Shown here: positions 4,859-53,235 of the stretch, one piece after another
Layout: every line of letters begins with the position of its first letter
How positions within the stretch are numbered: position 1 is the stretch's first letter
Assembly: GCA_963575745.1 (NCBI GenBank)
Contig: CAUYUJ010000072.1
Coordinates: 1 to 64,000, forward strand
DNA length: 64,000 nt
Direction of reading: 5' to 3'
DNA from: Prorocentrum cordatum
Taxonomy: Eukaryota
The notes under the pieces: model-generated
Told to the model about the DNA's origin: nothing
The model's input: the letters and a program-made list of their open reading frames with translations, nothing else
Databases searched by the model: none
Position numbers and translations under genes: made by a program

Positions 4859-4989
4859 TTAGTTGTTTGACCTAAACGGTTGGACCCCGCCCTCCCCAGT
4901 CGGCTTGGGTTTCTTCTCTCCCTGCTCCTGCCTCTGCTTGCCCTTCCCTTTTCCTCTCTCCCGCTCAAGCCTTCGGGGCTCAAAGCCCT
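4859..4989 (+). repeat. Split direct repeat A1 (131 bp)
   Basis: Matches 20101-20231 with one mismatch (gacct vs gtcct). Confidence 0.97.
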
Positions 4990-5042
4990 GGAGCCGACCT
5001 CAGGAGGTCTGGGCGCCCGCGGCGCCCGGAAGCGTGCGTGCC

Positions 5043-8000: not shown

Positions 8001-9740
8001 GATGCCAGCCAAGAGCCCAGCCAACCTGGAGATCCCCCTGGGCAGGGCGCCGCCACGAGCGCTCCGCCATTGCCGCCGCCGGCTACCCCGCCTGGCGTGC
8101 GCGTGCCGGGAGCGACTCGTTTGTCTCCGCCAGGTTTGATGCCCGGCCTCGTACCGAATCTCGGGCAGATGTTCACTAACCGGAGCGCTTATGGCCACGG
8201 AGGACTGGTTGAAACGCCAGGGCAGCCAGATCGTAGGTACGCCGCAGGAGCCGGAGAAGGTGAACCCTCAGCCGCTCTTTTCACCTACGCGCAAGTCCTC
8301 CAGAACGGTCAAGAACAGCAGCACCTAGACAACATGCGGCTGCTGCAGGCGGTGGACAGCCTCCGCAGGTCCGGCGAGGAAGAGAAGGTAGCGCAGCGGG
8401 GCACCCTCGGCGCCATCGGACGTGCCGAGGAGCTGGACGTGTGCCTGGCGCGGGGTTGCGACACCCTCGACGTAGAGGTCTGCGGTACCCTGACCGGGCG
8501 GGAGTTGTTCCATGGCCTCAAGCGCGCCTGCGAGCACGCGAAGCACGTGATGCAGGCGGTGAACTGGCCGACGACGGTGACGAACAGGATGGCGCACGGC
8601 ATCGCCGCCTTCTGTTGGGGGGGGCGGGACCACAAGGATCTGGCCGAGTGGTCGATCTCCGTGGCCGATTTTCCCCATTGCAAAGCAGAGGTGTTCGACG
8701 CCTACACCATGCACACCACGTGCAAGCTCGAGCCGCGCCCCCGGCACCCGGTCGTCTTCTCTCAGTGGGTGAGGCAGGCCGAGAACGCCATCACCGTCTT
8801 CGGGCTAGTCTACGGGCGGATGCACGAGCCCGAGCGACGCCGAGCCCTGGAGACCCTCCGCCTTGCCTACGAGGAGGACGACGTGGCCTTCCCAGCAGAC
8901 TATGTGCACAGCCTTTGGGAGGAGCTTGCTGCAACCTGGTGCGAGCAGCTTCGGGAGAAGCGAAGGGAGGTGTGCCGCATCCTGGGGCTCACCAACCCGC
9001 GCCGGGAGGACATCAAAACCATCGCCCTCGCCCCTACAGGGCCGTCTGGGAGTGCGTGGTTGACCTTTCCGAAGGTATACGACCTCGACGCACCGGACGG
9101 GTACTACCAGGTGGCGTGCGTCCCTCGCCAGGCCCGGCGGCTGCAGAGGTTCCTCCATCAGAACCTCCACGCCGGCCCCTCGAGGACCCCCAAGGCTGGG
9201 AAGGCTGACGAACACACCCCAGCAGATCAGGAGGCGCCCACCGGAGCTGGCCCAGGCACTGGAAAGGCAGGGGCCGCCGTCAAGAAGGCTGCTGCCAAGA
9301 AGCGGCCCGCCGCCCGGGCGCACCCAGCAGGGAAGGCGCTGACGTCCAGCGAGATCGGGCGCTCAGTCAAGCACGCCCCCCGGGACAAGAACGGGAAGGT
9401 CATCTGCTGGGACGCCTGCACATGGGCTGGCTGCCCCAAGGCGGCAGGGGCTGGCTGCCCCAAGGCGGCAGGGACTTGCGCCCACTCCCATGAGGCCATC
9501 AAGGGGCTTGGCAGCCTGGACTGGACCGTGCAGGCGCAGCTCATCAGGCGCGGCGGCCTGAAGTCTGGCGCTAAGGTCGACCCCGCCTCGGTCGACGGGC
9601 GGGTAGCTCAGCTCAGGGCCCAGGCCAAGGCCGAAGCAGACAGCAAAAGGGCTGGGGGAGGCGCCGGAGAAGGTCCCGGGGCCCCTGCGGGGGGCAGCCG
9701 AGCGGGAGGCGGCTGTTTGGTCCCCCCCAGCTGCCTTTGA
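5043..9740 (+). CDS. Element segment 1: hydrophobic/membrane-like N-terminus, Cys/His clusters, Gag-like region, CCCH zinc finger
   Basis: First ATG at 5043 in the 1625-aa ORF 4863-9740. Hydrophobic stretches at ~5565-5756 and ~6210-6310. ICWDACTWAGC...CAHSH at ~9402-9492. First ORF of a DIRS-order element, the usual gag position. Confidence 0.8.
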   Translation: MAARRPVLAGPARGLAALVTSAAAYDWRGPLSSAVARASWGHPAAAQEAPFGYTVPYYDDSEYGMEIGEPEEEGGDAGSPQAPRDSGPPGAPPPPPAQAAGGVDNGSDPTKDPGSEESWVGGWGVWALGLKPLRAGTWAWRLSGMGGVAYEKLDSLGSAFSTHAETGWLTKDGGWFFYALEKLGLTVFGAAWPAVAWTFILLAFLAVLAFLTHICRTLLAPCAAALWLIGLLARCTKCRRREPGDAAAERYLPPAPPALTQINWMGPETGPATTTEYYSKKVKGRGTGRRPYDVLIKIDDHVARLKIDLSEPKRIDRKGLWIDYLAAKGASSRALRQKLESLEGRSIHLCRDLVCRDQPGEVHCKEYAALDSEAIVDIGSHARFTSCRGVFLLWRTVADLGRAIWKVIVFLYCILSCGCSFCCRRRRRRKTGAAEPGVAGSIAEVLDQESESEVEAEDRPCEAVRVGIVLRGGARPLAPDGCRGAAEAEPTTLLFEDGQASDLPPPSDGRNSFAHLCAHRAQVYRAPRYRDKCSQVTCYRQAVGNAEGVPLCLLHLGGEAGRAAQAAAAAQGRGFLSSSGLRRRAVRSRSPRAREQGAPVNAAPPADGVRGPEGHRGQAAPGQHRREASASPRGPPVGVRFEAPPSPRVPLPRDASPAPDEETEQGDSLVLRVRVHWAAGPQWVIFLGKSRPGGGPAGDGSATVVDVEEPHCKDYSAEGQENVCFTLMTAGIECAPVAGDQGRLPAGYLEELLYHPPIGAEEMGIGVHGVVVSSTMWEKLRPWNGVPVGGKTKRIGRPQWAQLRARGDLLVHRHPAGTSGDAPGVPQPTSDELDTQLKKHWARLDRSSSPKPPFGVGWGLGEEGDLASSAPRRTSRSPAGKDHEEENTGEAMLGLYLAAHEEGSDDASALQSVAAGYDEDITVVLEHLIKYTKRLMRSSGTEERAKYQAHIDRWERKLERVRAEKDEGVNPPLASGLLKLDTERKPDASQEPSQPGDPPGQGAATSAPPLPPPATPPGVRVPGATRLSPPGLMPGLVPNLGQMFTNRSAYGHGGLVETPGQPDRRYAAGAGEGEPSAALFTYAQVLQNGQEQQHLDNMRLLQAVDSLRRSGEEEKVAQRGTLGAIGRAEELDVCLARGCDTLDVEVCGTLTGRELFHGLKRACEHAKHVMQAVNWPTTVTNRMAHGIAAFCWGGRDHKDLAEWSISVADFPHCKAEVFDAYTMHTTCKLEPRPRHPVVFSQWVRQAENAITVFGLVYGRMHEPERRRALETLRLAYEEDDVAFPADYVHSLWEELAATWCEQLREKRREVCRILGLTNPRREDIKTIALAPTGPSGSAWLTFPKVYDLDAPDGYYQVACVPRQARRLQRFLHQNLHAGPSRTPKAGKADEHTPADQEAPTGAGPGTGKAGAAVKKAAAKKRPAARAHPAGKALTSSEIGRSVKHAPRDKNGKVICWDACTWAGCPKAAGAGCPKAAGTCAHSHEAIKGLGSLDWTVQAQLIRRGGLKSGAKVDPASVDGRVAQLRAQAKAEADSKRAGGGAGEGPGAPAGGSRAGGGCLVPPSCL

Positions 9741-12348
9741 CGAGATTCAGACCACCGCCCTCGAGGAGGAGCTCAGGCAGGCCGTCCAGGGCCCCGAGGA
9801 GGACTGGTTGCTGGACGCCCACGCCAACGCGCCCGCGGTGGAGGGGACCAGTGAGACGACTCATCCCGCCGCTCTCGAAAGATGGAACATCATTGAGAAG
9901 ATCTTGGAGAGCGGGGCCCTCGCGACGCTGGGCGACATCAGCGACTACCTGCATTCACACGCCCTGGCCAGGCTCGCACGCGCCAGCTCAGAGGGCATCT
10001 CCCTGAGCTTGGAGGAAGTACTGCTGGAGGCGACTCGGGACGGGGGGCCAACCCTCGCCGAGGAAGCCGGTCGGGCCCTCGACAGGCTGGGATCAAAGGC
10101 GGGGAGGAGCAGCACTCAGGACCTCAGCATTGGAGGAGCCTCCTGGGACGAGGAGGCTGGAGTTGGCCGCGGGAAGCTCACGGTGCAAGACCAAGACTGG
10201 GACTATCTCGACTTCCAGGACGAGCTTCAGCCCGACGAAGAGATGAGAACCCGGCTCGGCCTCAAGGAAGGCGACGCAGAGCTCAGGCAGTGTCTGGTGC
10301 TCCACATCGCGGCCGCCCTGCTCTGGGGGGATAAGGAGCCTGATGCGCCGGCCGTGAAGGCCCTGGCTGCTCAGCTCCGCCGCGAGTTGTGGGATGGAGC
10401 CACCACCGCCACCGCCGCATTGGGGGGCGCACCTCCCTTCGTCTCACCACGTGAAGCCGAGCTCCGGATGCGCTGCCATGATGTCCAGCACCCGCACCAC
10501 GACAAGGACTTCAGGTGCATCTCGGTCTTCCCCCTGAGTGCCCTCAACACGACCACCGTCCGGGTCTGGAGGATCAACCACTGGAACCAGCTCGAGATCG
10601 ATTCCGTCCTGCCGACGCAGACCAGCGAGAGGGAAGTCCACGTCATGATCCATCGAGGGCATATGCGGGTGCTCAGGCCACCGGTCATCAGCGGCCAGAG
10701 TCCCAACAAGCGAGGCCGGGCATTTGGGGAGATCCTCAAGACCTGGACGCTAGCTGGGAAACCCGTCCGCGAGCTACTCACAGTCGGCTGGGAGATGTAC
10801 CTGGAGTCAGAGGAGGTCGCGGGGCCCGTGATCCCGAGCCGGCCCCCGCCCTGCATGCACTGCAAACGTATGCAGCAGGCTCAGCTCCCAACGCGTGAGG
10901 GCGCCGTCGGGAACCAGGAGCTCGAGGAGGAGGACTTCTCCGGTCTCGCACCACTCCTGCGCAGACCCGCCTTCGCGTGGGGCATCCGCACTCGCGAGAT
11001 CTTCGCAGGGACAGGGAACTGGACCAAGGCGATGCGAGAAGCTGGACTCCAGACGGCTCCGTCCGTCGAGTATTTCCAGGACCCCCTGGCCCAGACCGGG
11101 CCCCAGGAGGAGCACGACGTCCTCGATCCCCAAGTGCGAGAGAGGCTCCTCCTCGACGCTGGGGCAGCGCCAGGCCCCGACGAGGCGAACGTCTACCAGA
11201 TGGCCCCCCCGTGCGCGACCCACTCAGCCTGGTGCCTCAAGAACGGCGGGACCCGCACGTTTGAGCATCCGGACGGCGACGGGACGGTCCAGGCGGAGAT
11301 CGACAGCAACATCATGACCGATTTCGCCGCCGACCTCTGCGAGCGCCTCGACGCCAACGATCGAGAGTGGATGCTCGAGAACACGGCCAGCGACGGACGC
11401 TACCCGAAGATCTGGGACAGGGCCAGGATCAGGCAGCTGCAGAAGCGCACAGGAGCACGGATTATCTCCGTCGCCATGTGCGAGTGGGGGCTAGGGCCCC
11501 CAGAGGAGCCTGCGAAACGGCACCGCAAGCTGACGTTCTGGATGGTCTCGAAGGGCCTCTACCCCTGGGCGCTCTCTCTGGCGAGGCGCTGCACCAACCA
11601 GCACGAACGCGTCGCCCTGGAAGGGCCTCTCCCCTACGACCTGACCCAGGCCCAGATCGACCACTACAACTCCTCCAAGCTCTCCCTCAGCCAGCCCGAG
11701 CAGAAGGACATCCTGAGCCTGACCAATCGTTTAGCCCTGGCAGGCGCGCAGGCTCAGGGTCTCGCCGCAGATACCAAGACCCTGGAAACCCCACAGCTCG
11801 GACCCGAGCTGCTGCGCCCGCTGAACGACCTCGTCGGCAAGCTGGGGCCCGTGAACTTCCACTGGAGCCGGGTCGAACCACGCACCGGGAAGGCCTTCGA
11901 GGACCTCCCGGAGGGCGCCGTGGCCTTGTACTACGGACGTGATCGAGCCGACAATTTCGTGGCCAAGATCTCACACCAGTCGCACCCGTGCCTGCACGGT
12001 GGCGGGCGCATCCCCAGCGGAGCTCCCCCACTGGCCAAGGCACTGCGGGAGGAGTTGAGCACCCTCGGCTTCCAGGTCGGTCAGCGTGGACTACGTCGCA
12101 CCCGCTACGCCGGCCAGTACCCGACGAGGCCGTGCGCTGCCTGGGCCGAGGTCGTCAAGGCTGCGGGAGCGGGGACCCCCCCCGCGAAGCTCCTGAAGAA
12201 GCTTGAGCCCATCGTCACGACGAGGGCCGGAGACAAGATGGCGGCGGGAGCCGGTGACGGGGTTCACCTGGCGGAACCCCCCCCCTCCTTTTCGCTTCCA
12301 GGACGTGCCAGTCACGGAGAAGGAGGCGGAGGAGGACCATCCAGCTGA
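9718..12348 (+). CDS. Element segment 2: putative cysteine protease domain followed by a C5 cytosine methyltransferase-like domain
   Basis: Frame is open upstream of the listed start (WSPPAAFDEIQTTALEEEL from 9718). RQCLVLH at ~10285 and IHRGHM at ~10648. EIFAGTG (motif I, ~11000), MAPPC (motif IV, 11200-11214) and LEN (motif VI, ~11374). Confidence 0.75.
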   Translation, partial: WSPPAAFDEIQTTALEEELRQAVQGPEEDWLLDAHANAPAVEGTSETTHPAALERWNIIEKILESGALATLGDISDYLHSHALARLARASSEGISLSLEEVLLEATRDGGPTLAEEAGRALDRLGSKAGRSSTQDLSIGGASWDEEAGVGRGKLTVQDQDWDYLDFQDELQPDEEMRTRLGLKEGDAELRQCLVLHIAAALLWGDKEPDAPAVKALAAQLRRELWDGATTATAALGGAPPFVSPREAELRMRCHDVQHPHHDKDFRCISVFPLSALNTTTVRVWRINHWNQLEIDSVLPTQTSEREVHVMIHRGHMRVLRPPVISGQSPNKRGRAFGEILKTWTLAGKPVRELLTVGWEMYLESEEVAGPVIPSRPPPCMHCKRMQQAQLPTREGAVGNQELEEEDFSGLAPLLRRPAFAWGIRTREIFAGTGNWTKAMREAGLQTAPSVEYFQDPLAQTGPQEEHDVLDPQVRERLLLDAGAAPGPDEANVYQMAPPCATHSAWCLKNGGTRTFEHPDGDGTVQAEIDSNIMTDFAADLCERLDANDREWMLENTASDGRYPKIWDRARIRQLQKRTGARIISVAMCEWGLGPPEEPAKRHRKLTFWMVSKGLYPWALSLARRCTNQHERVALEGPLPYDLTQAQIDHYNSSKLSLSQPEQKDILSLTNRLALAGAQAQGLAADTKTLETPQLGPELLRPLNDLVGKLGPVNFHWSRVEPRTGKAFEDLPEGAVALYYGRDRADNFVAKISHQSHPCLHGGGRIPSGAPPLAKALREELSTLGFQVGQRGLRRTRYAGQYPTRPCAAWAEVVKAAGAGTPPAKLLKKLEPIVTTRAGDKMAAGAGDGVHLAEPPPSFSLPGRASHGEGGGGGPSS

Positions 12349-15300
12349 GCTCAGAGGATGGCAATGCGCGAACAGAGGCAAGAAGAGAGGAGGGTGGAAA
12401 CGCAACAAGGCGAGAAAGAGGGATCCCGACCGAGGAGCGCCACCACCGGGCCCTGGAGGAGATGGCGGAGACGACGAACCTGGGGGAGACGAAGGAGAAG
12501 GAGAGGAGGAAGAGGAAGAGAAGGAGCCGCCCAGGAGGGTCAAGAAGTCCAGGCAAGCCGAGCAGCAAGCCGATGAGCCAGTCAAGGTGATTCTTCCACA
12601 GCGGGGGGACCGATGGATACCAATCCCGGGGGCCCCCATGTACGCGCACGAGCTCCAGAGCGTCCTCATGACCTGCAGATGGCTGCGCGACGACGTCCTC
12701 AGCCCCGAGGAGCTTCGCCTGTTCGTCTACACCGACGAGGGGGACGCCGCAGGAGCCGAGGGACCTCCCTTAGAAGACGACGATCGTGTCGAGCCCGGGG
12801 AACGCCTTATCCTGTGGATCGGGAAAGAGGACATCGGGAATTGGGCAGCCTGGGCGCCGCGCTGGATCAAGAGGGCCGCGGACGAGGAGCGTGAGGGGGC
12901 GCCGTGGCACCGCAGCGAGGCCACCCCCGCGTCCCACCGCAGCGTCACGCTGAGGATCGCCGACCGCGTCAGCTCCCAGGGCTTTGGCAGCCCAGAGCTT
13001 GGCGCTGTCTGGAACAGGCGGGCCCCTCCGCCGCGCTCAGGAGGGAGGCGTTTCCAGCAGGCTGCCGCCCAAGCCCTCCAGAGACAAAGCCGCGAGGCGC
13101 CCGCTGGAGGGTCCAGCAGCGGAGGCAGCTCAGCCGACAGCATCAAGCTGGAGAGCATAAGGAGGAAGCTCGAAGCCGCCAAGGCCGCCGAGGTAGGTGT
13201 CCTGGAGGAGGAGGAGAAGCGCATCAAGGAGCTGCAGATACAGCTGGCAGAAGCTAAGGAGCGCCGCCGGGCCCGTCGTGCGAGGGATGCCGGCAAGCGC
13301 GAGGCAGAGCAAGCGCAAGCCGGGCATCCCCGCCGGGCCAGCTCAGAACCCCCCAGCGGGCAGGGCGCGGCCACCCCTCTCGATCCAGCCTGGGAGGACG
13401 AGACCCCGTTGCCCTCGGCCATCCTGGATGGGGAGAACAAGTGCCACGAAGCGGAGTGCATCTTGAATAACCTGCCCGGAGTTCCAGCTGACGATCCCAC
13501 GGGACCTGATCGGAGGAGGAAAGCGCGGGAGCTCCTGATCGAGGGCATCAGCTCCATGTTCGAGGACCTACCGCGGAGCTGGACCGGCACCCCCTACGAG
13601 GAGCAAGGCGAGATCGCGAGCGAGTACGTTGACATCCTCGAGAAGCTGACCCGCAAGATGGTGAAAGCAGGGGAGCTGGACGACACCCCCGCAAAGAAGC
13701 GCCAGAGAATCGTGCACGAGAAGGCGGAGGAGGAACCCACGAGCGACGACGCGGACTCCGACGAGAGCTCGGAAGACGAGGTGGTGGAGAAGCCGTACGC
13801 GAGGACCGAGGAGGGAATAGACCCCCCCCTCCCAGAGGATCCAGATCCCCTGAGCCTCTGGCCCGGGCAAGCGGAGGCGGCCAGGCGGAGCAGGGAGGAG
13901 ACTTTCCAGAGCTCTCCTGGGGCCAGCGGCAGCGGAGGCCCCGCCCCCGCCGCAGGTGCAGAGCCACCGCCGAGTGCACCTCCACCGCCCGAGGTACTGG
14001 AAACCCCCTCAGACCCAGCCCAGTATCGGAAGAGCAGACTCCCCGCCACGATCCCCCAGAAGGCCGCGCCAACGAGGAGAAGCCGCTCGGCCATGACAGT
14101 CGTGGAAGCAGCCAGGCGTGCCGCAGGCAGGTCGACGACCTCCAGCGGAGACCCCCCTACTGGGGGAGCCGACGCCGGCAGCGCAGGGACGTCCGGAGAG
14201 AAGCTCGCACTCAGGCCCAAGCCGAGATCACTGGGTGCCCAGCTGCGCGCCACCTCCAAGGGAGAGCCATCGCAGCCCAGACCCCGCCAAGATGATCCAG
14301 CCAGGCCGCTCGTGCCCCCAGATCACGCAGTCAGGCCCCTGGTGAGGCCCCCAGGGTGGCGCCCGCTTCTCCCTGGGCAACTCGCCCGGCCGCCGGGGAT
14401 GCCGCCGATGATGCCGCCCCCTTGGCCGTCCCCTCCGCGGGGGGGCCGCTGTGGGGGACCCCCTTTGGGGGAGGCGCCGGCGGCGCCGAGCGGTGGGGGG
14501 GCGCAGGAGGAGGCGCGTGACTACGTTAAGTGGTGCGCGGACCACCCCACCTTCCAGCCCGAGAAGGTGCCAGAGGTCGTGAAGCGGGGCAACTCACTCC
14601 TCCGCCTCGCCGGCAGCGTCGAGAGGGCTGCCGAGTTGCTGAAGCACGCGCGGGAGGAGGTCCATGGGAACCCACTGGGCGGCGTACTCCAAGAAGACGT
14701 GCAGAAGTCCTTGGACCCGCACCACGCCGCCTACCTCCGGGCCATGGCCACCGGGGGGGTACCCGTGCGACGCACGGAGGAGCGGACGCGCACGCAGGCC
14801 AAGTCGCACTCCTCGGCGGTGGACCACGCGCTGGAGATGTTCGAGAAGGCCTGGAAGGACAGCCGCTACGGCGTTGTCCTCTGGGCCTCGGACGAGGTCG
14901 AGGGCGTGCTCGCCGCCTCGGCGCTGGTCGAGTCGCCCAGCGGGAGGGTCCCCGAGATGTTGCCGGATCGGACCATCTCGAAAGAGGGCCGGCCGATCCA
15001 CGACATGCGGGCGGCCAACGCCTTCTCTCCGAAGGAGCAGCACCCGCCAGCGAAGCAGCCCCTCCACAGGGGGCTTGCGAGGCTCAGCCTCTGGTGGGGG
15101 GCGAGGCACCCGGGCGTCCAGCAGGTGGTGGCGAAGCGCGACGTGGCCAGGGCCTTCAAGTGGCACCACCTGGAGCCAGCTGCCGTGCCAGAGTTCGGGA
15201 CGACGCTCTCGGGCAGGGAGGTCGGGGTGCCAGGGCGAGTTATCCTGATCCACGGCGTGCTGGTCTTCGGCTGGGCCGGCAGCCCGGGCGAGTACATGGC

Positions 15301-17764
15301 GTTCGCCTGGGCGGCCAAGAGCGAGCACGAGAGGAGGAAGCCGCCGGCGCCCAGGATCAACGATGCCGTCAGGTACGCCTCCAAGTGGCTCATGGACGAC
15401 GGGGTCGTCCTCGAGCCGCTGGTGGGCCTCCGACCCTGGCTCTCGGCCGAGGAGCTCGACGGGGCCATGAAGCGAGTCTGGGGCCCGGACGCAGTTAACG
15501 AGGAGAAACTGGACGTCGAGGGGGAGTTCGCGGCAGAGCAGTTGATCTGGGGACTCCACATGAACTTCGACACGAAGGTGGTCAGGCTCCCAGAACCCAA
15601 ATGCATCAAGGCTCAGTACCTGCTCGCCCTCCCGGATCTCAGAGGATCCAGGCGGGTCCCGCTGAAGGTCGCCCAAGAGCTGCGAGGCTGTGCCCAGTTC
15701 TGGGCGTCAGCACAGCCAGCGCTGCGCCCCGAGCTCCCCGCCCTGGACCGACTCCTCAGCAGCGGGACGAGCTGGGCAGAACCGAAGGGTACGCCTGAGG
15801 AAGTCGAGCTCGCCTGGGAGGAGTGGGGCGCGTCAGTGGGGTTTCTGAGGATGCTCTTCGACGTCCCGGAGGCCTGGAGCACGACCTCCCAAGCCAGCTT
15901 CACGCAGGCCCTGTCGGTGCGCGAACGCCTCGCCTTGCCAGGGACAGCGCGTACCACACGGTGGACGGGCGGAGATGCTACCACCTCCTCGATCGGTGCC
16001 ATCGACTGGGGGAGCGCAACTGCAGGGGATGCCGCGCCGACGCCGGAGTACATGGCCACGGACGCCGGACCATTGCTCGAGGCCCTGAGTCACGCGGTCA
16101 CAGGCGAGAGTGGCGAGGAAGGCTGGATCATAGCGGTGGTCGAGCTGCTGGCGGTGGTCGCGTTGGCCACGAAGCAGGGCTCGAAGTGGGAAGGCGAGTT
16201 GGTATTTTACGTCACGGACAACCAGAATGTGAAGGCCTGGCTCACCAAGAGAAGCCCCAAGAACGCCCTGGCCCGCCACCTGATACGTCTGGTGGGAAGG
16301 ATCGAAGCCATGCACGGATGCCGCATCGTCTCGTTCTTCGTGAGGACCTACCATAATGAAGTGGCCGACTGGCTTACCCGCGAAGAGGTCAAGCAGGTTC
16401 ACGACACGCTGGCCACCTCAGGGTGGACGCGCCTAGAGCCTCCCGCAGCCTGGGGCCAGATACTGGAGGACGCCAAGGAGCGCCTTCTCAGGCTCCCTGG
16501 AGAGACGGGCCCCGTGGCCGAGGCTGCCCTTCGACACCGAGCACTTCAGCGAGGACATGGACTGCCGAGAGCTCTCCCGCTCCGCGGGAAGCTGGGTCGA
16601 GAAGTGGGGAGTCTCATCAACCCGTACACGAAGGCCTTCGAGCGCCTCGGGGGACCGGAGCCCGAGGAGAACCAGAAGGTGGGATGGCTCATGGCGTCGC
16701 TGCCCCTAGACCCCAAGGGCCGAGAGATGGAGGCTTTCTTCGTCGCAGCAACTCAGGAGAGCCCTGAAGTGGCGGTCGTGGACGCCCCGACCGGGGTAGA
16801 CACAGCCAGGTTCGAGAAGGCACTCAAGCAGCTGGGCTACATGGTCTCGAAGTTCGAGGTGGTCTGCACGCACCACGGGGACGCCGCGACGCGGACCAGG
16901 CGGGTGCTCGTGGGCGGACGTCGGAAAGCGGGGGTGGGCCTGGCGTGCATTAACATGCCGCCGGCCTGCTCCCGAGCTGCCAGCGTCAAGCCTCTCCTGG
17001 AGAAGGGGAAGGACCACCTGTGGCTCGACCAACAAGGCGAAGTGTCATGGGACCCCCGCATCCAGTCCACCAGCGACCCCCTCCTCCTCAAGCCGGTCGG
17101 GCACCTCAAGAAGGATGGAGCGAAGCGCCTGATCTACAGCGAGGAGGGGCCGGTGGGCACAATCCGCTGGCCTGGGGCGGAGCTCCAAGGACCCGGGGCG
17201 ACGCTCCTCCGTGTCACCGGAGGGGGCGGAGGCACGGTCCGCGCCCTGACGCCCCAAGAGGTTTGGCGAGTGCAGGGAGGGACCAACGACGAGTGGACCC
17301 ACTTGCGAGCCCAGGGCTTCACCGAGGACGAACTCCTGAAGGGCGCCGCCAGGGCGCTCCCGCCGAGGACCGCGGAGGCAGTGCTGACCGCGGCGACAGA
17401 GGCGCTCGACAGCACCAGCACGCAGCGGGCCGGGGTGTGCCATGATCCAGAGGAGCAAGCTGCGTGGGAGGCCACCAAGCGCTGGTTCCGCGCCTGGGCC
17501 CAGGCACCGGATCAGCCCGCCTTGGCACTGGCAGCAGAGGGCGAGGTGAGGGCCGGAGGAGCGCTCACCGACGAGATGCACAAGAACCGCCGGCGCGCCC
17601 AGGCAGTCCGCTTCAAGATGATCGACGAGGACACGCTCATCGGACCCCGCGAGGCCCCAGCCGCCGAGAAGGTTAAGCTGGATAAAAGTGTGACACGCTC
17701 GAAAAGTCCTCGCAAAAAAAAAGCCCTCGGCGTGCCAAAGAGATGCCAGCAACCGACCTGGTGA
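12203..17764 (+). CDS. Element segment 3: low-complexity/coiled-coil linker, reverse transcriptase, RNase H, degenerate C5-MTase-like domain
   Basis: RT: KRDVARAF (Asp at 15140), LVFGWAGSP (~15260), WLMDDG (~15386). DIRS-type RNase H: GDAT, VELLA, VTDN, NEVADWLTR (15970-16380). MTase C-terminal motifs: HGDAATRTRRVLVG and VRALTPQEVWRVQG. Confidence 0.9.
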   Translation: MSPSSRRGPETRWRREPVTGFTWRNPPPPFRFQDVPVTEKEAEEDHPAELRGWQCANRGKKRGGWKRNKARKRDPDRGAPPPGPGGDGGDDEPGGDEGEGEEEEEEKEPPRRVKKSRQAEQQADEPVKVILPQRGDRWIPIPGAPMYAHELQSVLMTCRWLRDDVLSPEELRLFVYTDEGDAAGAEGPPLEDDDRVEPGERLILWIGKEDIGNWAAWAPRWIKRAADEEREGAPWHRSEATPASHRSVTLRIADRVSSQGFGSPELGAVWNRRAPPPRSGGRRFQQAAAQALQRQSREAPAGGSSSGGSSADSIKLESIRRKLEAAKAAEVGVLEEEEKRIKELQIQLAEAKERRRARRARDAGKREAEQAQAGHPRRASSEPPSGQGAATPLDPAWEDETPLPSAILDGENKCHEAECILNNLPGVPADDPTGPDRRRKARELLIEGISSMFEDLPRSWTGTPYEEQGEIASEYVDILEKLTRKMVKAGELDDTPAKKRQRIVHEKAEEEPTSDDADSDESSEDEVVEKPYARTEEGIDPPLPEDPDPLSLWPGQAEAARRSREETFQSSPGASGSGGPAPAAGAEPPPSAPPPPEVLETPSDPAQYRKSRLPATIPQKAAPTRRSRSAMTVVEAARRAAGRSTTSSGDPPTGGADAGSAGTSGEKLALRPKPRSLGAQLRATSKGEPSQPRPRQDDPARPLVPPDHAVRPLVRPPGWRPLLPGQLARPPGMPPMMPPPWPSPPRGGRCGGPPLGEAPAAPSGGGAQEEARDYVKWCADHPTFQPEKVPEVVKRGNSLLRLAGSVERAAELLKHAREEVHGNPLGGVLQEDVQKSLDPHHAAYLRAMATGGVPVRRTEERTRTQAKSHSSAVDHALEMFEKAWKDSRYGVVLWASDEVEGVLAASALVESPSGRVPEMLPDRTISKEGRPIHDMRAANAFSPKEQHPPAKQPLHRGLARLSLWWGARHPGVQQVVAKRDVARAFKWHHLEPAAVPEFGTTLSGREVGVPGRVILIHGVLVFGWAGSPGEYMAFAWAAKSEHERRKPPAPRINDAVRYASKWLMDDGVVLEPLVGLRPWLSAEELDGAMKRVWGPDAVNEEKLDVEGEFAAEQLIWGLHMNFDTKVVRLPEPKCIKAQYLLALPDLRGSRRVPLKVAQELRGCAQFWASAQPALRPELPALDRLLSSGTSWAEPKGTPEEVELAWEEWGASVGFLRMLFDVPEAWSTTSQASFTQALSVRERLALPGTARTTRWTGGDATTSSIGAIDWGSATAGDAAPTPEYMATDAGPLLEALSHAVTGESGEEGWIIAVVELLAVVALATKQGSKWEGELVFYVTDNQNVKAWLTKRSPKNALARHLIRLVGRIEAMHGCRIVSFFVRTYHNEVADWLTREEVKQVHDTLATSGWTRLEPPAAWGQILEDAKERLLRLPGETGPVAEAALRHRALQRGHGLPRALPLRGKLGREVGSLINPYTKAFERLGGPEPEENQKVGWLMASLPLDPKGREMEAFFVAATQESPEVAVVDAPTGVDTARFEKALKQLGYMVSKFEVVCTHHGDAATRTRRVLVGGRRKAGVGLACINMPPACSRAASVKPLLEKGKDHLWLDQQGEVSWDPRIQSTSDPLLLKPVGHLKKDGAKRLIYSEEGPVGTIRWPGAELQGPGATLLRVTGGGGGTVRALTPQEVWRVQGGTNDEWTHLRAQGFTEDELLKGAARALPPRTAEAVLTAATEALDSTSTQRAGVCHDPEEQAAWEATKRWFRAWAQAPDQPALALAAEGEVRAGGALTDEMHKNRRRAQAVRFKMIDEDTLIGPREAPAAEKVKLDKSVTRSKSPRKKKALGVPKRCQQPTW

Positions 17765-17881
17765 GGCCGCAAGCGCTGGGCGTAGCTCGGAAGACCAACT
17801 ACCCCGGAAAAGGAGCTCGCCCCCGCCGGCCGCGCTGAGCCTGGCGGAGCCAACTACGCCGGCTGGTTCGCGCAGCAGAAG

Positions 17882-18976
17882 ATGGAGGCCATGCTGCAGA
17901 AACTCAGTGAAGGCACAAGGGCAGGTTACGAGGGAGGATGGCGGCTCTGGGTTGCCGCGCGCCAGGCGCAGGGGCTCAGCCCTTGGCTCCCAGGACGTGA
18001 TCGCGAGGAGCGCCTGGCCGATGAGGAGGCGCCCATCAACTTCGCCGTCCTCTTAGCGCGGGTCGTCGCGAGGACCGAGGGGACCATCAAGCAGAAGCTC
18101 TTCGCGGTGCGCTACGCCCACCTGGTGGCTGGCTACTCGGACCCCCTGCTCCACAGAGGCCGCCTCTGGAGCACGCTGGCAGGGCTGAAACGCTGGCAGG
18201 GGCCCGAGACCAAGCGGAAGAAGCCCGTCACGCCAGCCATGCTCGAATGGCTCCGCGGCTTTCTCCAGCAGGAGGCCAAGCTCCCCGAGGAGGATGCCGT
18301 GGTCATCTGGGCGGCCATCGTGACAGCGTTTTTCTTCCTCCTGAGGGCCTCAGAGTACCTCCTCCAGGACGGGCGCTCGTGGTCCTTCGAGCGCGTGCTG
18401 CACGGGGAGGACGTGGAGCCCAAGAAGGAGGGGAGGCGCGTGGCCAGCTTCCAGGACGCCGACGAGATGGTGATCTACATCAAGGGCAGCAAGACGGACC
18501 AGCTCAACGTCGGGACGGTGAGGAACCACTACCGCGCCGGCACATCGCTCTGCCCGATCGCGGCGATGGAGCGGCTCCAGGCTCACCATCCTCAGCGGAT
18601 AAAGGGCACCGAGGAACGGCTGCCCCTCTTCCGCTGGGCGTCAGGTACACCGATCCGCAGGGCAGAGGTGCAGCACTTCCTGACGGTCGCGGGGCTGGCC
18701 GCCGGCCTCTCCAGGGAAGAGATCGGTAGCCACTCCCTGAGGATCGGCGGGGCAACTGCAATGTACCACGTGACCGAGGACCTCTCCCGAGTGCGCCGAT
18801 TCGGGCGCTGGCAGTCGGACGCGTTCCACGGCTACCTGTGGGAGTCGCACGAGCCGATGAAGGGCATCTCCGGCAAGATGGCCAGGGACAACTCCTCGTT
18901 GACCAACCCGGCGAAGGACAGCGCCTCCAGCAGAGCTGCCGCCGGCGCCGAGAGCGCCAGGCGTGAGAGCCCATGA
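17882..18976 (+). CDS. Tyrosine recombinase (phage-integrase family) of the retrotransposon
   Basis: Full catalytic set R-K-H-R-W-Y: FFLLRASEY (R 18344), GSKTDQ, SHSLRIGGAT (18728-18757), FGRWQS, HGYL (Y 18833). Confidence 0.95.
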   Translation: MEAMLQKLSEGTRAGYEGGWRLWVAARQAQGLSPWLPGRDREERLADEEAPINFAVLLARVVARTEGTIKQKLFAVRYAHLVAGYSDPLLHRGRLWSTLAGLKRWQGPETKRKKPVTPAMLEWLRGFLQQEAKLPEEDAVVIWAAIVTAFFFLLRASEYLLQDGRSWSFERVLHGEDVEPKKEGRRVASFQDADEMVIYIKGSKTDQLNVGTVRNHYRAGTSLCPIAAMERLQAHHPQRIKGTEERLPLFRWASGTPIRRAEVQHFLTVAGLAAGLSREEIGSHSLRIGGATAMYHVTEDLSRVRRFGRWQSDAFHGYLWESHEPMKGISGKMARDNSSLTNPAKDSASSRAAAGAESARRESP

Positions 18977-19872
18977 GAGGCCGCAGCGGGCGCCGCCGGT
19001 GCTTACGCACCTGGCGTGCGCCCGACCCAAGCCGCCGGCTTCGCGCCGTGCGTGCTTGGGTGCAGCCACCAGCCACCTGCCCCGCCGGCGAGTAGCCGCG
19101 CGCTCGCAGGGTACACCCGCCCGTGCCTTCAGCACTGGCTAATACCTCACGGCAAAAGCATGCGTGCAGGTCCGTCCGTCAGGGCCCCACTAGTGCCTGG
19201 GATACTGTGGGTCCCCTTGCAGCCCTGGACGAGGACCACGCTGGAACCCGCCTGGCACGCCGGCTCTCCATGCCAAGCCTGGGCGTGCCGGGCATACTGA
19301 CGCCAGCTGTGCTACAGTAGCTGGCAGTCTGACGGCCCGGGTGGCCGCAGCGCTCGAATTCATGCGCAGGCGCGGGCCCGCGCCCCAGCGCCGGCCCGGG
19401 GAACCCCCTCTGTCAGGGGCCGGACCCTGCCCGCCCCGTGCACTTTGGGCACCTGCGGAGGCGGGGAGCCGGGAGATCTGGAGGCCGCGGCGCAGACGGG
19501 GACGCCAAGTGCCGGCCCGCGCCAAGCGCCAGCGACGACACCCTCGGGCCTCAGCCCGAGGTCGGGCTCCGCCGGCAATCCAGGTACCGGCGCGAGCCCA
19601 AGGCCTAGCCTCACGGAGGACAGCCGCGCGCGCCGGCATCAGTTGCCTGGCGGCAGTCGGCAGACAGGGGGCCAGTCGGGCCCCCACACGCACGCCGGCG
19701 CGCACGCCGGGCGATGCGTGACTCAGTGCCTAGACGGTGCCGGCAACACAACGCCTGGCACCCAGTTTTGGCGACGCCCATCAGGGCGCCCACACAGCAC
19801 GCCGGCGCGTAGCACCCGCCAGGCGGCCAGTGTGCGGGGGCACTGGCAGCAGCACCAGTATTATAGAACAAA

Positions 19873-20100
19873 GGCGGCGAGGCCCGCTTCGCGTGGCGGA
19901 AGGAGGGACCCGCCTGGCGTGTCATCGCCGGCGGGAGGAGCGCGCGGCCAGCGCAGCAGCAAAATGGGGGGGGCTGCACCGCTGCCGCCATCATCGTCAT
20001 CGTCTCCTGAGGGCCCGCTTCAACCGCTTCGCGGCTGGCACGTCCCGCGGCCTTAAAGCAGGCCGCGCTTTCGCTAGCGCCGTACTGTGGGGGCGGGGTC
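19873..20100 (+). repeat. Split direct repeat B1 (228 bp)
   Basis: Matches 20299-20526 with two C/T differences; abuts A2 directly. Confidence 0.97.
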
Positions 20101-20231
20101 TTAGTTGTTTGTCCTAAACGGTTGGACCCCGCCCTCCCCAGTCGGCTTGGGTTTCTTCTCTCCCTGCTCCTGCCTCTGCTTGCCCTTCCCTTTTCCTCTC
20201 TCCCGCTCAAGCCTTCGGGGCTCAAAGCCCT
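20101..20231 (+). repeat. Split direct repeat A2
   Basis: Copy of 4859-4989. Confidence 0.97.
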
Positions 20232-20298
20232 CCCAGGGCCCAAAGGGGCCCTCTTTTGCCCGCCCACCCTGGGCTTTGCCTCGGTGTCCTACGGCACC

Positions 20299-20526
20299 GG
20301 CGGCGAGGCCCGCTTCGCGTGGCGGAAGGAGGGACCCGCCTGGCGTGTCATCGCCGGCGGGAGGAGCGTGCGGCCAGCGCAGCAGCAAAATGGGGGGGGC
20401 TGCACCGCTGCCGCCATCATCGTCATCGTCTCCTGAGGGCCCGCCTCAACCGCTTCGCGGCTGGCACGTCCCGCGGCCTTAAAGCAGGCCGCGCTTTCGC
20501 TAGCGCCGTACTGTGGGGGCGGGGTC
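20299..20526 (+). repeat. Split direct repeat B2 (element 3' end)
   Basis: Copy of 19873-20100. Confidence 0.97.
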
Positions 20527-20910
20527 GGGTCTATCGGGTATAGCCAGGACCCCGGGTAAGGGGGCCCGGTTAGTGGTAGGGCCCTGGGGCCCCTCAATCG
20601 GCCAGATTCATTAAACCAGGTTTGCCGTAACTGGTGTTTTTCGGGTGACGGCAGTTCCGGTTCGTGGAAATGAGGCGGGGGGGCGCCCCCGGTACAAATC
20701 ACTAAACCAGGTTCCACTAAACCCAGTTTTGCCAACGCCCGAGTCTAACTCACCATCAACGCGCACGGTGGATCTATCCCCGCAGTCACCTGACATCTTT
20801 CCTGACAGCGCCGTTCAGGCCTGAGTTCTTGCCAGCCCGTGCGCCCCTGGGGGCGCCCCAGGTACCTGACGTCGGCCACGGAGATGGGCGTGGCGCTCGG
20901 CGGGCTGCTC

Positions 20911-21166
20911 GTTCAAGCAGTGGCGAAGCGTCCCGGCTCGCCTATAGCCCCACCAAACAATGTTCTAAGAACCTTTTGTGGTTCCCACGAAATGTTCTTA
21001 GAACATTTATGTCTGGGACTGTCTTGTTTTAGCACGGGCTTATGTTCTAAGAACATTGTTTTTCCCAACCATCCTGTGGTGTTGGGTCCTCGTTTTGAAG
21101 AGACGGCGCCCCGCGTTCCTCACCTCCTCCTCCTCCTCCCCCCCCCTCCCTCCTCCCATCATCATC

Positions 21167-21198
<32 letters not shown>

Positions 21199-21202
21199 CA
21201 CC

Positions 21203-21236
<34 letters not shown>

Positions 21237-22806
21237 CCACCGATTTCGGCACACCCCTCACACGTTTCGTGGCCCCATAGGGAGCTCCACCGAAGGCCCC
21301 AGTGGCAGGGTCCGCATGCCTCCCCACCACCCATTTCGGCACACCCCTCACACGTTTCGTGCCCCATATGAGCTCCACCGAAGGCCCCAGTGCAGGGTCC
21401 GATGGCCTCCCACCACCGGTATTTCGGCACCATCAGCGTTTCGTGGCCCCATAGGGAGCTCCACCGAAGGCCCCAGTGGCAGGGTCCGCATGCCTCCCCA
21501 CCACCCATTTCGGCACACCCCTCACACGTTTCGTGGCCCCATAGGGAGCTCCACCGAAGGCCCCAGTGGCAGGGTCCGCATGCCTCCCCACCACCCATTT
21601 CGGCACACCCCTCACACGTTTCGTGGCCCCATAGGGAGCTCCACCGAAGGCCCCAGTGGCAGGGTTCGCATGCCTCCCCAAAACCCATGGCACACCCTCA
21701 CACGTTCGTGCCCCATAGGCAGCCCACCGAAGGCCCCATTGGCTCGCGCACGCCCATCCCCCTCCCCACCACCCATTTCGGCACACCCCTCACACGTTTC
21801 GTGGCCCCATAGGGAGCTCCACCGAAGGCCCCAGTGGCAGGGTTCGCATGCCTCCCCACCACCCATTTCGGCACACCCCTCACACGTTTCGTGGCCCCAT
21901 AGGGAGCTCCACCGAAGGCCCCAGTGGCAGGGTTCGCACGCCTCCCCACCACCCATTTCGGCACACCCCTCACACGTTTCGTGGCCCCATAGGGAGCTCC
22001 ACCGAAGGCCCCAGTGGCAGGGTTCGCATGCCTCCCCACCACCCATTTCGGCACACCCCTCACACGTTTCGTGGCCCCATAGGGAGCTCCACCGAAGGCC
22101 CCAGTGGCTGCGTTCGCATGCCTCCCCACCACCCATTCTCGGCACACTCCTCACACGTTCGTGGCCCCATAGGGAGCTCCACCGAAGGCCCAGGGTCCGC
22201 ATGCCTCCCCCACCACCCATTTCGGCACACCCCTCACACGTTTCGTGGCCCCATAGGGAGCTCCACCGAAGGCCCCAGTGGCAGGGTTCGTATGCCTCCC
22301 CACCACCCATTTCGGCACACCCCTCACACGTTTCGTGGCCCCATAGGGAGCTCCACCGAAGGCCCCAGTGGCAGGGTTCGCATGCGCCCACCACCCATCG
22401 TTCGGCACACCCCTTACACGTTTTCGCATGCCCCCACACCAATTCGCACACCCCTCACACGTCGGGCCCAACGAGCTCCACCGAAGGCCCCAGTGGCTGC
22501 GTTCGCATGCCTCCCCAACACCCATTTCGGCACACCCCTCACACGTTTCGTGGCCCCATAGGGAGCTCCACCGAAGGCCCCAGTGGCTGCGTTCGCATGC
22601 CGCCACCCACACCCATTCGGCACACCCCTCAAACGGTTCGTGGCCCCATAGGGAGATCCACCGAAGACGGTACTCACACCAGCATTACTCACAACTGCAT
22701 ATGGTTGGGTCCTTCGCCAGGCTATTTGTTCTTAGAACATTTTTGGGTTCTAAGAACATTTCGTGGTATGACGATAGAAATGCCGGGACGGTCGGTCCCT
22801 GCTCAA
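20911..22806. mobile_element. MITE-like element with GTTCT(A/T)AGAAC iterons, interrupted by the satellite-carrying element
   Basis: 20911-21060 joined to 22725-22806 aligns with the uninterrupted copy at ~43005-43243. Imperfect ~40-bp inverted ends (cgtcccggc / gccgggacg). Confidence 0.7.
21061..22724 (+). mobile_element. Non-autonomous Helentron/DINE-1-like element, copy 1: (CAT/CAC)n tract plus 90-bp tandem array
   Basis: Head ttcccaaccatcctgtggtgttgggtcctcgttttgaagagac and tail actgcatatggttgggtccttcgccagg are shared with four other copies. Array ~21241-22660 has period 90. Confidence 0.75.
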
Positions 22807-23156: not shown

Positions 23157-24041
23157 AGACATCTTGGGATATCTTGAGCCATCTTGGAGGTCATTTTGGG
23201 CTCTTCCAGACGCTCTTGGAGTCATCTTAATCCGTGCCCCCCCCCAAGAGGCCTCCATGTGGCTAAAACCTGTGTAGAATCAATGATTAGGCATTCTCGC
23301 CGAGGCCTCTTGGAGCATCTTGGGTGCATCTGGGGGGGCTCTTGGGGCCTCTTGGGGGTCTCTTGGGGGCCTCCGGGGGGCCTCTTGGGGGCCTCTTGGG
23401 GCCATTTTGGGGCCATCTTGGGACCTCTTGGGGCTTCCTGGGCGCTTCTTGGGGCCATCTTGGAGGAGATCGATCAAACAAGAGGGGGGGTTGAATTAGC
23501 GCCCCCCCTCGGAAGCCCCTAAAATCGCCTCTTGGACCCCTCTTGGAACGCTCTTGGAGTGCTCTTGGGCGCTCTTGGGGCCGTCTTGGGGCTCTTTTGG
23601 GGCTCTCTTGGGGCCCTCTTGGGCCATCTTGGAGCCATCTCCAGGCCTCGGATGGCCATCGGAAGCGAAAAGGCGAGAAAGCAAAAATCATTGATTTTCC
23701 TTAGTTTTGGGACGATTTTGGCCTCTTCGGGGCCTCCTTGGGGAGCTGTTTGGCCACTTGGAGTTATCTTGGGGCCGTCTTTGGGCTTCTTGGAACCATC
23801 TTAGGAGCCATCGTGAGCGATCTTGCGCTATCTTGAGCCATCTTGGAGCTCATCTTGGGTTCTCTGAGGCGCTCTTGGAGCCGTCTTGGGCCATCTGGAC
23901 GCTCTAACTACCCGCGGCCCCCCCCGTCCAGGTCCAGGGGAGGGGGTAGGGGGAGGGGTAAACCCCTCCCCAAGGGGGAAGAGGGAGGGGTGGAAGAGGA
24001 TCTGCTCTAGACCACCTACGCCCAGAGGGCTGGTGGGATTC
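23157..24041 (+). repeat. Dispersed TCTTGG-rich repeat family, copy 1
   Basis: Degenerate (g/c)tcttggg(g)cc units with blocks catcggaagcgaaaaggcgagaa, ccaggggagggggtagggggagggg and agagggctggtgggatt shared with other copies. Confidence 0.8.
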
Positions 24042-27214: not shown

Positions 27215-28165
27215 AAGCGCAGGGCACGGCAGGCATGGCACCTTCTCGACACCAGAGGGAGTGCGTTGGTGGTGGTCCCTGAATGCGGTGTATGTCTACG
27301 ACACTGTCGAAAAGCCTAGCAGGCGTGCCATGTTCGACACAATCGTGGGTGCTCACGAGGTGGTCCCTGAGCGTGGCCGCTATCCGTGCCGGTCGTCCAG
27401 GGCGTAGCAGGCGTGGCACTTTCTGGACACCATGGGGGGTGCCCACGGGGTGGTCCTTGAGCGTGGCCGCTATCCGTGCCGGTCGGGTGCGCAGGAGGTG
27501 GTCCCTGAGCGCGGCCGCTATCCGTGCCGGTCGTGCAGGGCGTAGCAGGCGTGGCATTTGGGGGGAGCGCACGGGGTGGTCACTGAGCGCGGCCGCTATC
27601 CGTGCCGCTCGTCCAGGGCATAGCAAGAGTGGCACTTTCTCGACACCATCGGGGGTGCGCGCGGGGTGGTCCCTGAGCGCGGCCGCTATGCGTGCCGGTC
27701 GTCCAGGGCGTAGCAGGCGCAACACTTTCGACACCATGGGGGGTGCGCACGGGGTGGTCCTTTAGCGCGGCCGCTTTCCGTGCCGGTCGTCCAGGGCATG
27801 GCAGGAGTGGCACTTTCTCGACACCATGGGGGGTGCGCAGGAGGTGGTCCCTGAGCGCGGTCGCTGTACGCGCCGGTCGTCCAGGGCAAAGCAGGAGTGG
27901 TTTTTGTTCGACACCATGGGGGGTGCGCAGGAGGTGGTCCCTGAGCGCGGCCGCTATCCGTGCCGGTCGTCCAGGGCGTAGCAGGCGTGGCACTTTCCCG
28001 ACACCATAGGGGGTGCCCACGGGGTGGTCTCTGAGCGCGGTCGCTATCCGTGCCGGTCGTCCAGGGCGCTGCTGTCGGTGACGGTCGTCCAGGGCATAGC
28101 AGGCATGGCATATTGTCAACACCGCAAGGGGTTCGCACGGGGTGGTCCTTGAGCGCGGCCTCTAT
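27215..28165. repeat. ~90-bp minisatellite (gtggtccctgagcgcggccgctatccgtgccggtcgtccagggc...)
   Basis: gtccagggc recurs at ~27610, 27700, 27789, 27879, 27969 and 28059. Confidence 0.9.
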
Positions 28166-29089
28166 CCTTGACGGTGGTGCCCAAAACACATCTGTACGCA
28201 AGTTTGCTATCCTTGCTGGTCGTGGTCAGGTCACAGGGGGGCGCTGGCGGCGAGGTGCGTGGTATTATCTTCGAGCATGTGTAGCCACCTTGGCTCATGT
28301 CGGCTCAGTCTCGTTCGGGTTTGCACGCAGGCGCGTTCGCGCCAGTGATTGTTCGTCAAAGGTGCGGTGCCCGTCATGGCGCCCAAATGTGCCATGTCCG
28401 TGCTGCCGCCTCCGTGCGAGCAGCCCAAGAATTCCATGCTAGAGATGGGCGCCGCAGTGAGTTTAGATGGTTTACGCGCGCATGTTGAGAGGCATCGGAA
28501 TTGCTTTGTGCGCAGCGCATTTAATGCTTACCAGCGACAGCTTCTAAACTGGTGGCCCGAGACGCCCCTCACCAGGTACGACGAGTTGCTGCGCCAACGA
28601 GGCGCCGACGATGCCAGGAGGCAGTGCTGGGTGAGGTATTGGCTGAGCCCTTCTTCGGGCGGGTTTCCGAGAGACGTTTCTTCCCATTGGCCTGGGGGGA
28701 AGGTGGCTTTTGGCGGCCCGCCGCCAGCGAAGGTTCGGTGAGTGCAGGAGGCTGGTTGGCATCGCGGGCGCTGACCCGGCACCTTCCTCAGGGCAAGATG
28801 CCACTCCTATGAAGACCCCGCCTGCGAAGACCACGCCAACGACGGCTCCGCCCGCGCAGGCTTTCACCCTTCAGCGGTCTCCAGTTGTTCTGCTGGCTAC
28901 TTCTGTTCGTTCCTCCGGCACGCCTCGCGTTGCGGCACCCCCGGCGTCGCAGGGAACGGCCGCCAACATCATTATCACATGCTGGATTTCAGCCGTCACC
29001 ACTCCAGCCAGAATATAAGTACGTGGGATTCCTCGGTGGCGATTTTTGCTGCACTCGCCCCCCCCCATCCCCCCCTCCCCGCCAACAGC

Positions 29090-53203: not shown

Positions 53204-53235
<32 letters not shown>

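Follow-up and report, generated by a model that had tools for sequence, protein, structure and literature searches.

The window analysed here, a stretch of DNA of 64,000 nucleotides, contains a 15.7-kb element at positions 4859-20526 that is a DIRS-order retrotransposon with split direct repeats, probably hosted by Prorocentrum. Its parts follow the order A1-coding-B1-A2-B2, and all features described below lie on the + strand unless stated otherwise. The 5' terminal repeat A1 (4859-4989, 131 nt) and the internal repeat A2 (20101-20231) differ by one mismatch, with A at 4870 and T at 20112 as the sole difference between them. The B1 repeat (19873-20100, 228 nt) shares 99% identity with the 3' terminal repeat B2 (20299-20526), with 2 mismatches, and the last base of B2 is the end of the element. 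A unique spacer of 67 nt (20232-20298) separates A2 from B2 and contains CCCGCCCACCC at 20259-20269. C-rich motifs like this one also precede B2 in related loci.

Both ends of A were confirmed by contigs from other copies of the element, which diverge just before 20101 and just behind 20231. Ahead of 20101 the diverging contigs carry unlike sequences (agreement 0.55), while behind 20231 they run into A1-internal sequence. A contig joint leading from 20298 to 19873 was rejected as a real joint, being merely B2 mapping onto B1. No target-site duplication was found, the left flank ending in CTA and the right flank beginning with GGGTCT, with no direct repeat between them, and a search of the loci for poly(A) tails was negative. 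The 3' part of A2 includes GCTCAAG (20205-20211) and GCTCAAAG (20220-20227), two motifs similar to the 3' end of the spliced leader of dinoflagellates (PMC2606063); no longer leader-like match occurs in the window.

The interior of the element is occupied by long + strand frames. Two long open frames (4863-9740 and 9607-12348) match no Pfam family, the second having homologues in the polyprotein of locus L009. The Pol frame (12197-17764, 1855 aa) contains a predicted reverse transcriptase (RT) and RNase H-like core (14864-16546), recognised by fold only. The RT model, built from 24 aligned relatives, has a pLDDT of 79.9, and its best Foldseek match is the MMLV RT (E 3.6e-11), followed by the RTs of XMRV, foamy virus, CaMV, HIV-1 and Ty3, indicating at the level of predicted structure that the element encodes a reverse transcriptase with RNase H. 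Pfam and PDB-sequence searches of the window element do not recognise an RT, and Pfam gives just a weak RT_RNaseH match on Pol (E 0.2-0.26). A methyltransferase-like domain is present in PAT and DIRS1 and absent in Ngaro; when such a domain was sought in the Pol tail (16939-17764), no Pfam match was obtained. Two related Pol proteins carry an RNA 2'-phosphotransferase domain.

The last frame (17786-18976) encodes the tyrosine recombinase P0002, matching Phage_integrase with an E of 1.4e-4, below the Pfam cut-off. Its catalytic residues R187, K236, H316, R319, W342 and Y350 are kept across 27 aligned relatives, among which K236, H316, W342 and Y350 are nearly invariant, and the enzyme looks intact. 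In database searches its nearest relatives (82-94% identity) carry the name Prorocentrum cordatum, and more distant relatives come from marine metagenomes; none were found in viral contigs. Given the A1-coding-B1-A2-B2 anatomy with RT and recombinase, B1|A2 is an internal copy of the junction expected if the element ends were joined. Nowhere else in the integrated copy does the close of B, the 3' end sequence, run directly into the start of A, the 5' end sequence. The sequence-only reading had already proposed such an internal circle-junction copy of a tyrosine-recombinase retroelement, and the repeats, the recombinase and the RT fold bear this out.

The B1|A2 boundary lies inside a hairpin. 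The left perfect arm GGGCGGGGTC (20091-20100) forms the end of B, and the right perfect arm GACCCCGCCC (20125-20134) lies within A, each arm being the inverse of the other with 24 nt between them. These arms are exactly as first described, and they form the core of a larger structure than the one then claimed, a full junction hairpin of 68 nt and 30 pairs (20079-20146) with its loop at 20112-20114. In the RNA fold the inner stem adds the expected 9 pairs, including 4 G-U pairs, with a bulged T20102; the loop comprises 3 nt instead of the 5 originally given, an extra G-U pair closing it. The single A1/A2 difference (4870 A, 20112 T) falls in the loop, as had been pointed out.

In the outer helix, B contributes its final 22 nt (20079-20100), which pair with nucleotides 25-46 of A (20125-20146) through 20 of the 22 bases, and in the apical hairpin nucleotides 1-11 of A (20101-20111) pair with nucleotides 15-24 (20115-20124). 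The boundary is flanked by the pairs C20100-G20125 and T20101-G20124, whose partners are adjacent, so that B|A takes the position of a nick within a continuous helix. Nucleotides 15-46 of A (32 nt) thus consist of the complement of the 5' end followed immediately by the complement of the 3' end. Through these pairings of the B end and the A start, the two element ends abut inside one helix. Rfam 15 searched over 19000-21000 with E up to 10 returned 4 matches (E 0.75-4.1), all below gathering scores and none a ribozyme. Inspection of 20079-20146 for R/L boxes or XerC/D sites, using their consensus motifs as generally known, revealed none.

Folding of the central 48-mer depends on strand and parameter set. 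As RNA, the + strand forms one continuous stem at -30.1 kcal/mol, whereas the - strand keeps the outer stem only, at -23.3 kcal/mol. As DNA, the inner stem comprises 5 pairs on the + strand and 4 on the - strand, with energies of -14.8 and -13.8. The sequence-only reading held that only the + strand folds fully, which applies with RNA parameters and fails with DNA parameters. None of 200 dinucleotide shuffles was as stable as the 48-mer, whichever strand and parameter set was used; with DNA parameters the z-scores are -5.24 (+) and -4.78 (-), and with RNA parameters -5.11 (+) and -4.53 (-). For a composition-controlled 75-nt junction window, none of 300 shuffles reached its stability, and the z-scores of -5.35 (+) and -5.59 (-) indicate that the strand difference in the copy studied here vanishes once composition is controlled.

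Conservation among copies of the same family was assessed over 19700-20298 (599 positions) with contigs of 4 public runs, at a likeness of at least 85% and a share of at least 5%. The summed word depth is about 1,800 across B and A, indicating that the family has many copies. At this threshold, 22 of the 599 positions are variable and 0 of them lie in 20023-20156, rare variants dropping out of such public-run contigs. The variation flanks the hairpin, falling in B upstream (19908-20022) and in A downstream (20157-20262). The sole change inside the hairpin is a 1-nt deletion at 20136, found in one run at a depth of 163 of 1,887.

Related families were collected by scanning metagenome contigs with the alignment of 27 recombinases, which yielded 280 confirmed relatives, of which 80 loci were kept. 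Direct repeats were present in 16 of the 80 loci, and a B1/B2-like pair lay downstream of the recombinase gene in 12 of those 16. Both B copies lie inside the contig at five loci (L011, L012, L015, L029 and L078), which together with the window give six junctions defined by repeats, folding having no part in the definition. A single hairpin spans the junction in five of these six, L015 being the one without it. The + strand z-scores are -5.35 for the window, -2.45 for L011, -2.70 for L012, -1.33 for L015, -3.83 for L029 and -3.19 for L078, compared with a mean of about -0.2 and a standard deviation of about 1-1.1 in background windows from five related loci. Three further junctions (L001, L002 and L023), whose B2 is cut by the contig end, were placed by homology. 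Four loci (L031, L058, L076 and L080), with B2 cut and no homology to a defined junction, were excluded from the junction counts.

The recombinases of L001 and L002 are 64% and 58% identical to P0002. The core TTAGTYGTTTG...TAAAC is common to the window, L001 and L002, and the outer arms differ yet stay complementary. Compensatory changes at related B/A junctions, a check that the sequence-only reading had named, were found in the three-way alignment of these families, where both sides had changed in 8 of 21 pairs. Paired cells made up 90.5% of the total, compared with 79.4% in shuffled controls (0 of 500 reaching the observed value) and 35-47% with slid partners. Pair counts from the group-2 alignment, where L012 is misaligned, were not relied on. 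When the hairpins of the window, L001 and L002 were combined into a covariance model and run against 81 sources, the hits, apart from weak noise, were confined to the seeds themselves and the A1 end of the window element, adding no families.

Other ways of finding junctions or homologues were set aside. A core-motif scan of viral contigs produced at least 113 chance matches in phage-like contigs and was rejected as a source of homologues. Taking the strongest hairpin downstream of the recombinase gene mostly picks other GC-rich hairpins, so that raw energy is no locator of the junction. The best hairpin upstream of GCTCAAG, as a best-of-region choice, was excluded from the evidence.

Boundary geometry was examined in seven of the eight hairpin families, all but L023, which has its junction sequence in common with L029 and L078. 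In the window, L001, L002 and L011, the junction reads C-G | T-G and the helix is continuous. In L012, L029 and L078, the outer helix stops at the last base of B or one before, leaving the first 3-4 nt of A unpaired, so that in these three families a nick at the boundary would fall outside a perfect helix. In all seven families examined, the complementarity between B and A ends where B ends.

The bias of wobble pairs toward the + strand, noticed at first in the single hairpin of the window, generalises across the eight families, whose minimum-energy folds contain 28 G-U pairs among 199 on the + strand against 1 among 169 on the - strand. Raw RNA energy is better on the + strand by 4-14 kcal/mol in all eight. 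With DNA parameters, the strands are equal in four families and the + strand is better in four, the window slightly favouring the - strand. After dinucleotide shuffling, the mean z-score is -3.1 (+) against -2.4 (-), a modest difference that is absent in the window and L012. The wobble pairs themselves account for much of the G+T excess on the + strand. We read the G-U pattern, short of proof, as reflecting selection on the sense strand, most simply as RNA.

The flanks of the element were compared with the hairpin arms. The left flank next to A1 (4846-4858) carries a 10/10 match to the left-arm core, GGGGGCGGGG, with CTA after it in place of the TC at the B end, and the covariance model scores the left flank plus A1 (4829-4913) at 53.6 bits. 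Counting both strands, the 64-kb window contains 7 occurrences of the left-arm 10-mer, 3 of which are element-related. A perfect arm copy adjoining A1 is what an arm-reading recombinase would be expected to leave; judging by this one instance, the recombination machinery may recognise the arm in duplex form. On the right, GACCCCG (20548-20554), 21 nt beyond the element end, matches 7 of 10 positions of the right-arm core at a similar distance; this match is weak and post hoc, a lenient pairing test giving P 0.64, which is not unusual. The right flanks of L011, L012, L015, L029 and L078 contained no arm-like complementarity. The possibility that the flanks are decayed copies of B or A was rejected, their Smith-Waterman scores being no higher than those of shuffles.

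The anatomy of the site, its conservation, its covariation and its strand bias are direct observations. An element boundary tied to a conserved, covarying and sense-biased fold-back points to an end-junction signal acting in a single-stranded intermediate. Our leading interpretation, held tentatively and with somewhat less than even confidence, is that the hairpin is a single-strand fold-back signal for end-joining or recombination of the element ends, comparable to the internal complementary region (ICR) of DIRS-1. It is the best candidate so far for a signal that joins or recombines these ends.

For this mechanism we infer every step that involves a protein or an intermediate. The fold-back would form in a single-stranded replication intermediate and bring together or mark the ends, whereupon the junction would be made. 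A single helix would keep both element ends next to each other, much as the DIRS-1 ICR is believed to do, and B|A would be the position of the nick. The intermediate would most simply be the RNA template, as the G-U pattern points to the sense strand. The tyrosine recombinase might then exchange strands at the junction, on the spacer side of the GC-rich left arm, and the hairpin arms may double as recombinase binding sites. Two sub-variants can be distinguished: in (a) the fold-back would serve as a splint and be followed by duplex recombination, while in (b) the recombinase would act directly on the folded strand. The former is the more likely of the two.

Elements with split direct repeats are thought to restore their ends using the B1-A2 copy as a template, a model that does not require an extra self-complementary splint. 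The splint would also need ends that already stop exactly at the B|A boundary. To our knowledge, experimental work on the order is confined to DIRS-1, whose single-stranded cDNA has antisense polarity (PMC7192593). The end-joining interpretation has to accommodate this antisense cDNA intermediate, as the wobble bias in the families compared points to the sense strand. The missing junction hairpin of L015, the unpaired start of A in three families and the modest strand difference after shuffling also weigh against it.

An RNA role in template switching, which the sequence-only reading had offered as one option, is compatible with the data. A related alternative is that the hairpin is a signal of the genomic transcript with no part in end-joining, serving RT binding or initiation, packaging, or strand transfer in the manner of retroviral R hairpins. 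The wobble bias toward the RNA-sense strand in eight of eight families, with the + strand better by 4-14 kcal/mol, agrees with such a signal. A hairpin at the 3' end of the DIRS-1 mRNA has been proposed as a primer of reverse transcription (PMC7192593), and it is the only hairpin mentioned there. We nevertheless consider a pure transcript signal unlikely, for it leaves unexplained both the fixed structural position of the B|A boundary and the mimicry of the left arm in the flank, and the Rfam search with E up to 10 gave no family match beyond noise.

Alternatively, the hairpin could be a folded single-stranded DNA recombination site, a eukaryotic counterpart of attC and CTX attP, in which the recombinase would bind the stem of the cDNA, cleave at B|A and exchange one strand with a duplex target that mimics the stem. 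This overlaps sub-variant (b) above. The site, an imperfect palindrome, has kept its structure rather than its sequence, its B|A boundary lies inside the stem, the left flank presents a 10/10 duplex look-alike of the outer stem at the crossover, and a single-stranded cDNA intermediate is known in DIRS-1 (PMC7192593), all of which would fit. Against it, the expected first cDNA is antisense and loses the inner stem (1 against 28 G-U pairs), and with DNA parameters the inner stem has just 4-5 pairs on either strand. Past the crossover, about 9 pairs and a 3-nt loop are too short for a second binding site. R/L-box or Xer-type motifs were absent on inspection for the consensus motifs, the right flanks of L011, L012, L029 and L078 lack arm-like sequence, and the resemblance to the target comes from one copy. 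Direct recombination of the folded strand is not favoured, since the expected first cDNA strand folds worse and the stem beyond the crossover is short, and we judge it quite unlikely. A still bolder version, prompted by the RNA 2'-phosphotransferase domain of the two related Pol proteins, would have the ends ligated as RNA across the nick in the hairpin.

Equally doubtful is an ordinary site in the double-stranded circle junction, with folding playing no part: the recombinase would bind the two 10-bp arms as inverted sites and cross over where the left arm meets the spacer. Perfectly inverted arms, an element boundary exactly at the arm edge and a left-arm look-alike in the flank are all features that such a site would display, and the arms vary between families while staying mutual inverses, as if co-evolving with the recombinase. 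The spacer of 24 bp, however, exceeds the 6-8 bp generally regarded as canonical, and complementarity runs far past the arms, to 30 pairs. Asymmetric positions are nearly always G-T pairs of the same strand (28 against 1), which a duplex site would not lead one to expect, and the central 24 nt, rather than the arms, are conserved between families. That the hairpin has no function, as a chance palindrome or a by-product of the origin of the repeats, is highly improbable: GC-rich sequence folds easily and the strongest local hairpins sit elsewhere in most related loci, but shuffle controls, covariation, paralogue invariance and recurrence at independently defined junctions speak against it.

How elements of the DIRS order complete their ends, and which DNA their recombinase acts upon, are questions that go back to the 1985 DIRS-1 model, and we know of no signal of this kind other than the DIRS-1 ICR that has been tested experimentally. 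The present analysis points out a short, precisely bounded, conserved and covarying signal at a split-direct-repeat junction, offering concrete oligonucleotide substrates and mutants with which the splint, folded-site and duplex-site models can be compared. Dinoflagellate genomes are rich in such elements, and a junction signal would aid in annotating their ends. A full-text literature search, which did not extend to the older PAT and Ngaro work of Goodwin and Poulter, found no description of a junction hairpin in split-direct-repeat elements. Term look-ups within PMC5890265, PMC8547959, PMC3266345 and PMC13465315, with terms differing between papers, likewise turned up no mention of a junction hairpin.

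Among known systems, attC and CTX attP are imperfect palindromes conserved in structure, with one strand favoured, that are split by integration and restored in the circle. The junction described here is likewise an imperfect palindrome whose structure is kept rather than its sequence. Unlike them, it has no R/L boxes or Xer sites, its recombinase belongs to a eukaryotic family, its favoured strand is the RNA-sense strand (a preference known here from sequence and folding), and its presumed crossover lies in the middle of the 5' arm instead of at the stem base. With loxP, FRT, dif and att cores it shares inverted arms and a proposed strand exchange at an arm edge, whereas its spacer measures 24 bp against 6-8 bp in those sites and its complementarity continues through the spacer and past the arms.

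Within the DIRS order, the arrangement A-coding-B-A-B, a recombinase frame following Pol and an RT that Pfam fails to recognise have been described for the Symbiodinium elements (SymbioDIRS; PMC5890265) and for the Cafeteria Ngaro (PMC8547959). The window element resembles PAT-like, Ngaro and SymbioDIRS elements in its A-coding-B-A-B order, in the recombinase frame following Pol and in an RT too divergent for Pfam, and differs from them in its length of 15.7 kb, with about 7.5 kb of extra coding sequence without assignment.

The closest parallel considered for the hairpin itself is the ICR of DIRS-1, which is complementary to both termini and essential for retrotransposition, acting downstream of first-strand synthesis, as reported in PMC7192593 and PMC3266345. 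In both elements, one contiguous internal segment pairs with both termini, first with the 5' end and then with the 3' end, which places the two ends next to each other at the circle junction. Unlike DIRS-1, the window element has split direct repeats in place of inverted terminal repeats; its segment is just 32 nt long, lies inside A beside the 5' end and is present in both A1 and A2; the internal B1-A2 copy completes it to a closed hairpin; and its pairing is better on the sense strand. The likeness suggests that the ICR principle extends beyond inverted-repeat elements.

The A repeat of the element carries a short spliced-leader-like motif, GCTCAAG, which matches the 3'-terminal 7 nt of the spliced leader of dinoflagellates as given in the abstract of PMC2606063. 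The motif occurs in A1 at 4963-4969 and in A2 at 20205-20211, with a second, imperfect leader-like copy in A2 at 20220-20227, 4 nt beyond which the A repeat ends. Among metagenome-contig loci with relatives of the window's recombinase, GCTCAAG is found at L001 8571, L002 2372, L012 2840, L023 7239, L029 7212 and L078 6943; L016 contains an 11-nt match at 5821. GCTCAAG is located 55-104 nt past the junction in seven of the eight families with a junction hairpin. The element RNA may be trans-spliced at the leader-like motif of A, and strand transfer from the 5' end of the RNA to A2 may use the leader relic as its region of homology.

Outside the element, the window holds an 11-nt tandem repeat of the TCTTGGGGCC type (23307-23898), some units of which read GCCATTTTGG and are similar to the middle part of the spliced leader. 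Several further tandem-repeat arrays, with units of 90 nt and 112 nt, are located at 21170-22740, 53060-54170 and 56540-58180, at 45385-46690, and at 27250-28200. The array at 21170-22740 is flanked on both sides by inverted copies of a palindrome containing GTTCTAAGAAC (20946-21057 and 22713-22766).

Within the element, the unique spacer contains a C-rich motif of the CCCRCCCACCC type just upstream of B2 (20259-20269), G-rich on the antisense strand, with none upstream of B1. A C-rich motif in front of B2 is also present in L002, L003, L012, L015, L023, L029, L031, L058, L078 and L080. The motif is a candidate signal for priming or with a structural role. A separate small GC hairpin, of the GGCGCG-TTT-CGCGCC type, lies immediately 3' of the stop codon of the recombinase gene in several of the related families, at about 7050-7075 in L011, 5418-5445 in L014, 880-905 in L019 and 7020-7050 in L020.

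The coding regions of related elements include additional domains. An RNA 2'-phosphotransferase domain (Tpt1/KptA, PF01885) is encoded within the Pol frames of L011 (1216-5244; E 2e-24) and L014 (1621-5409; E 3e-26), placed behind the RT core, at a position occupied by unrelated sequence in the window's element; no description of Tpt1 in elements of this type came up in a full-text literature search. A DnaJ domain is present in L009. Upstream of Pol, the window's element has open-frame sequence totalling about 7.5 kb (4863-12348) that matches no Pfam family, part of which is common to L009 and L001. With this extra sequence, the element is about double the typical length for elements of its order.
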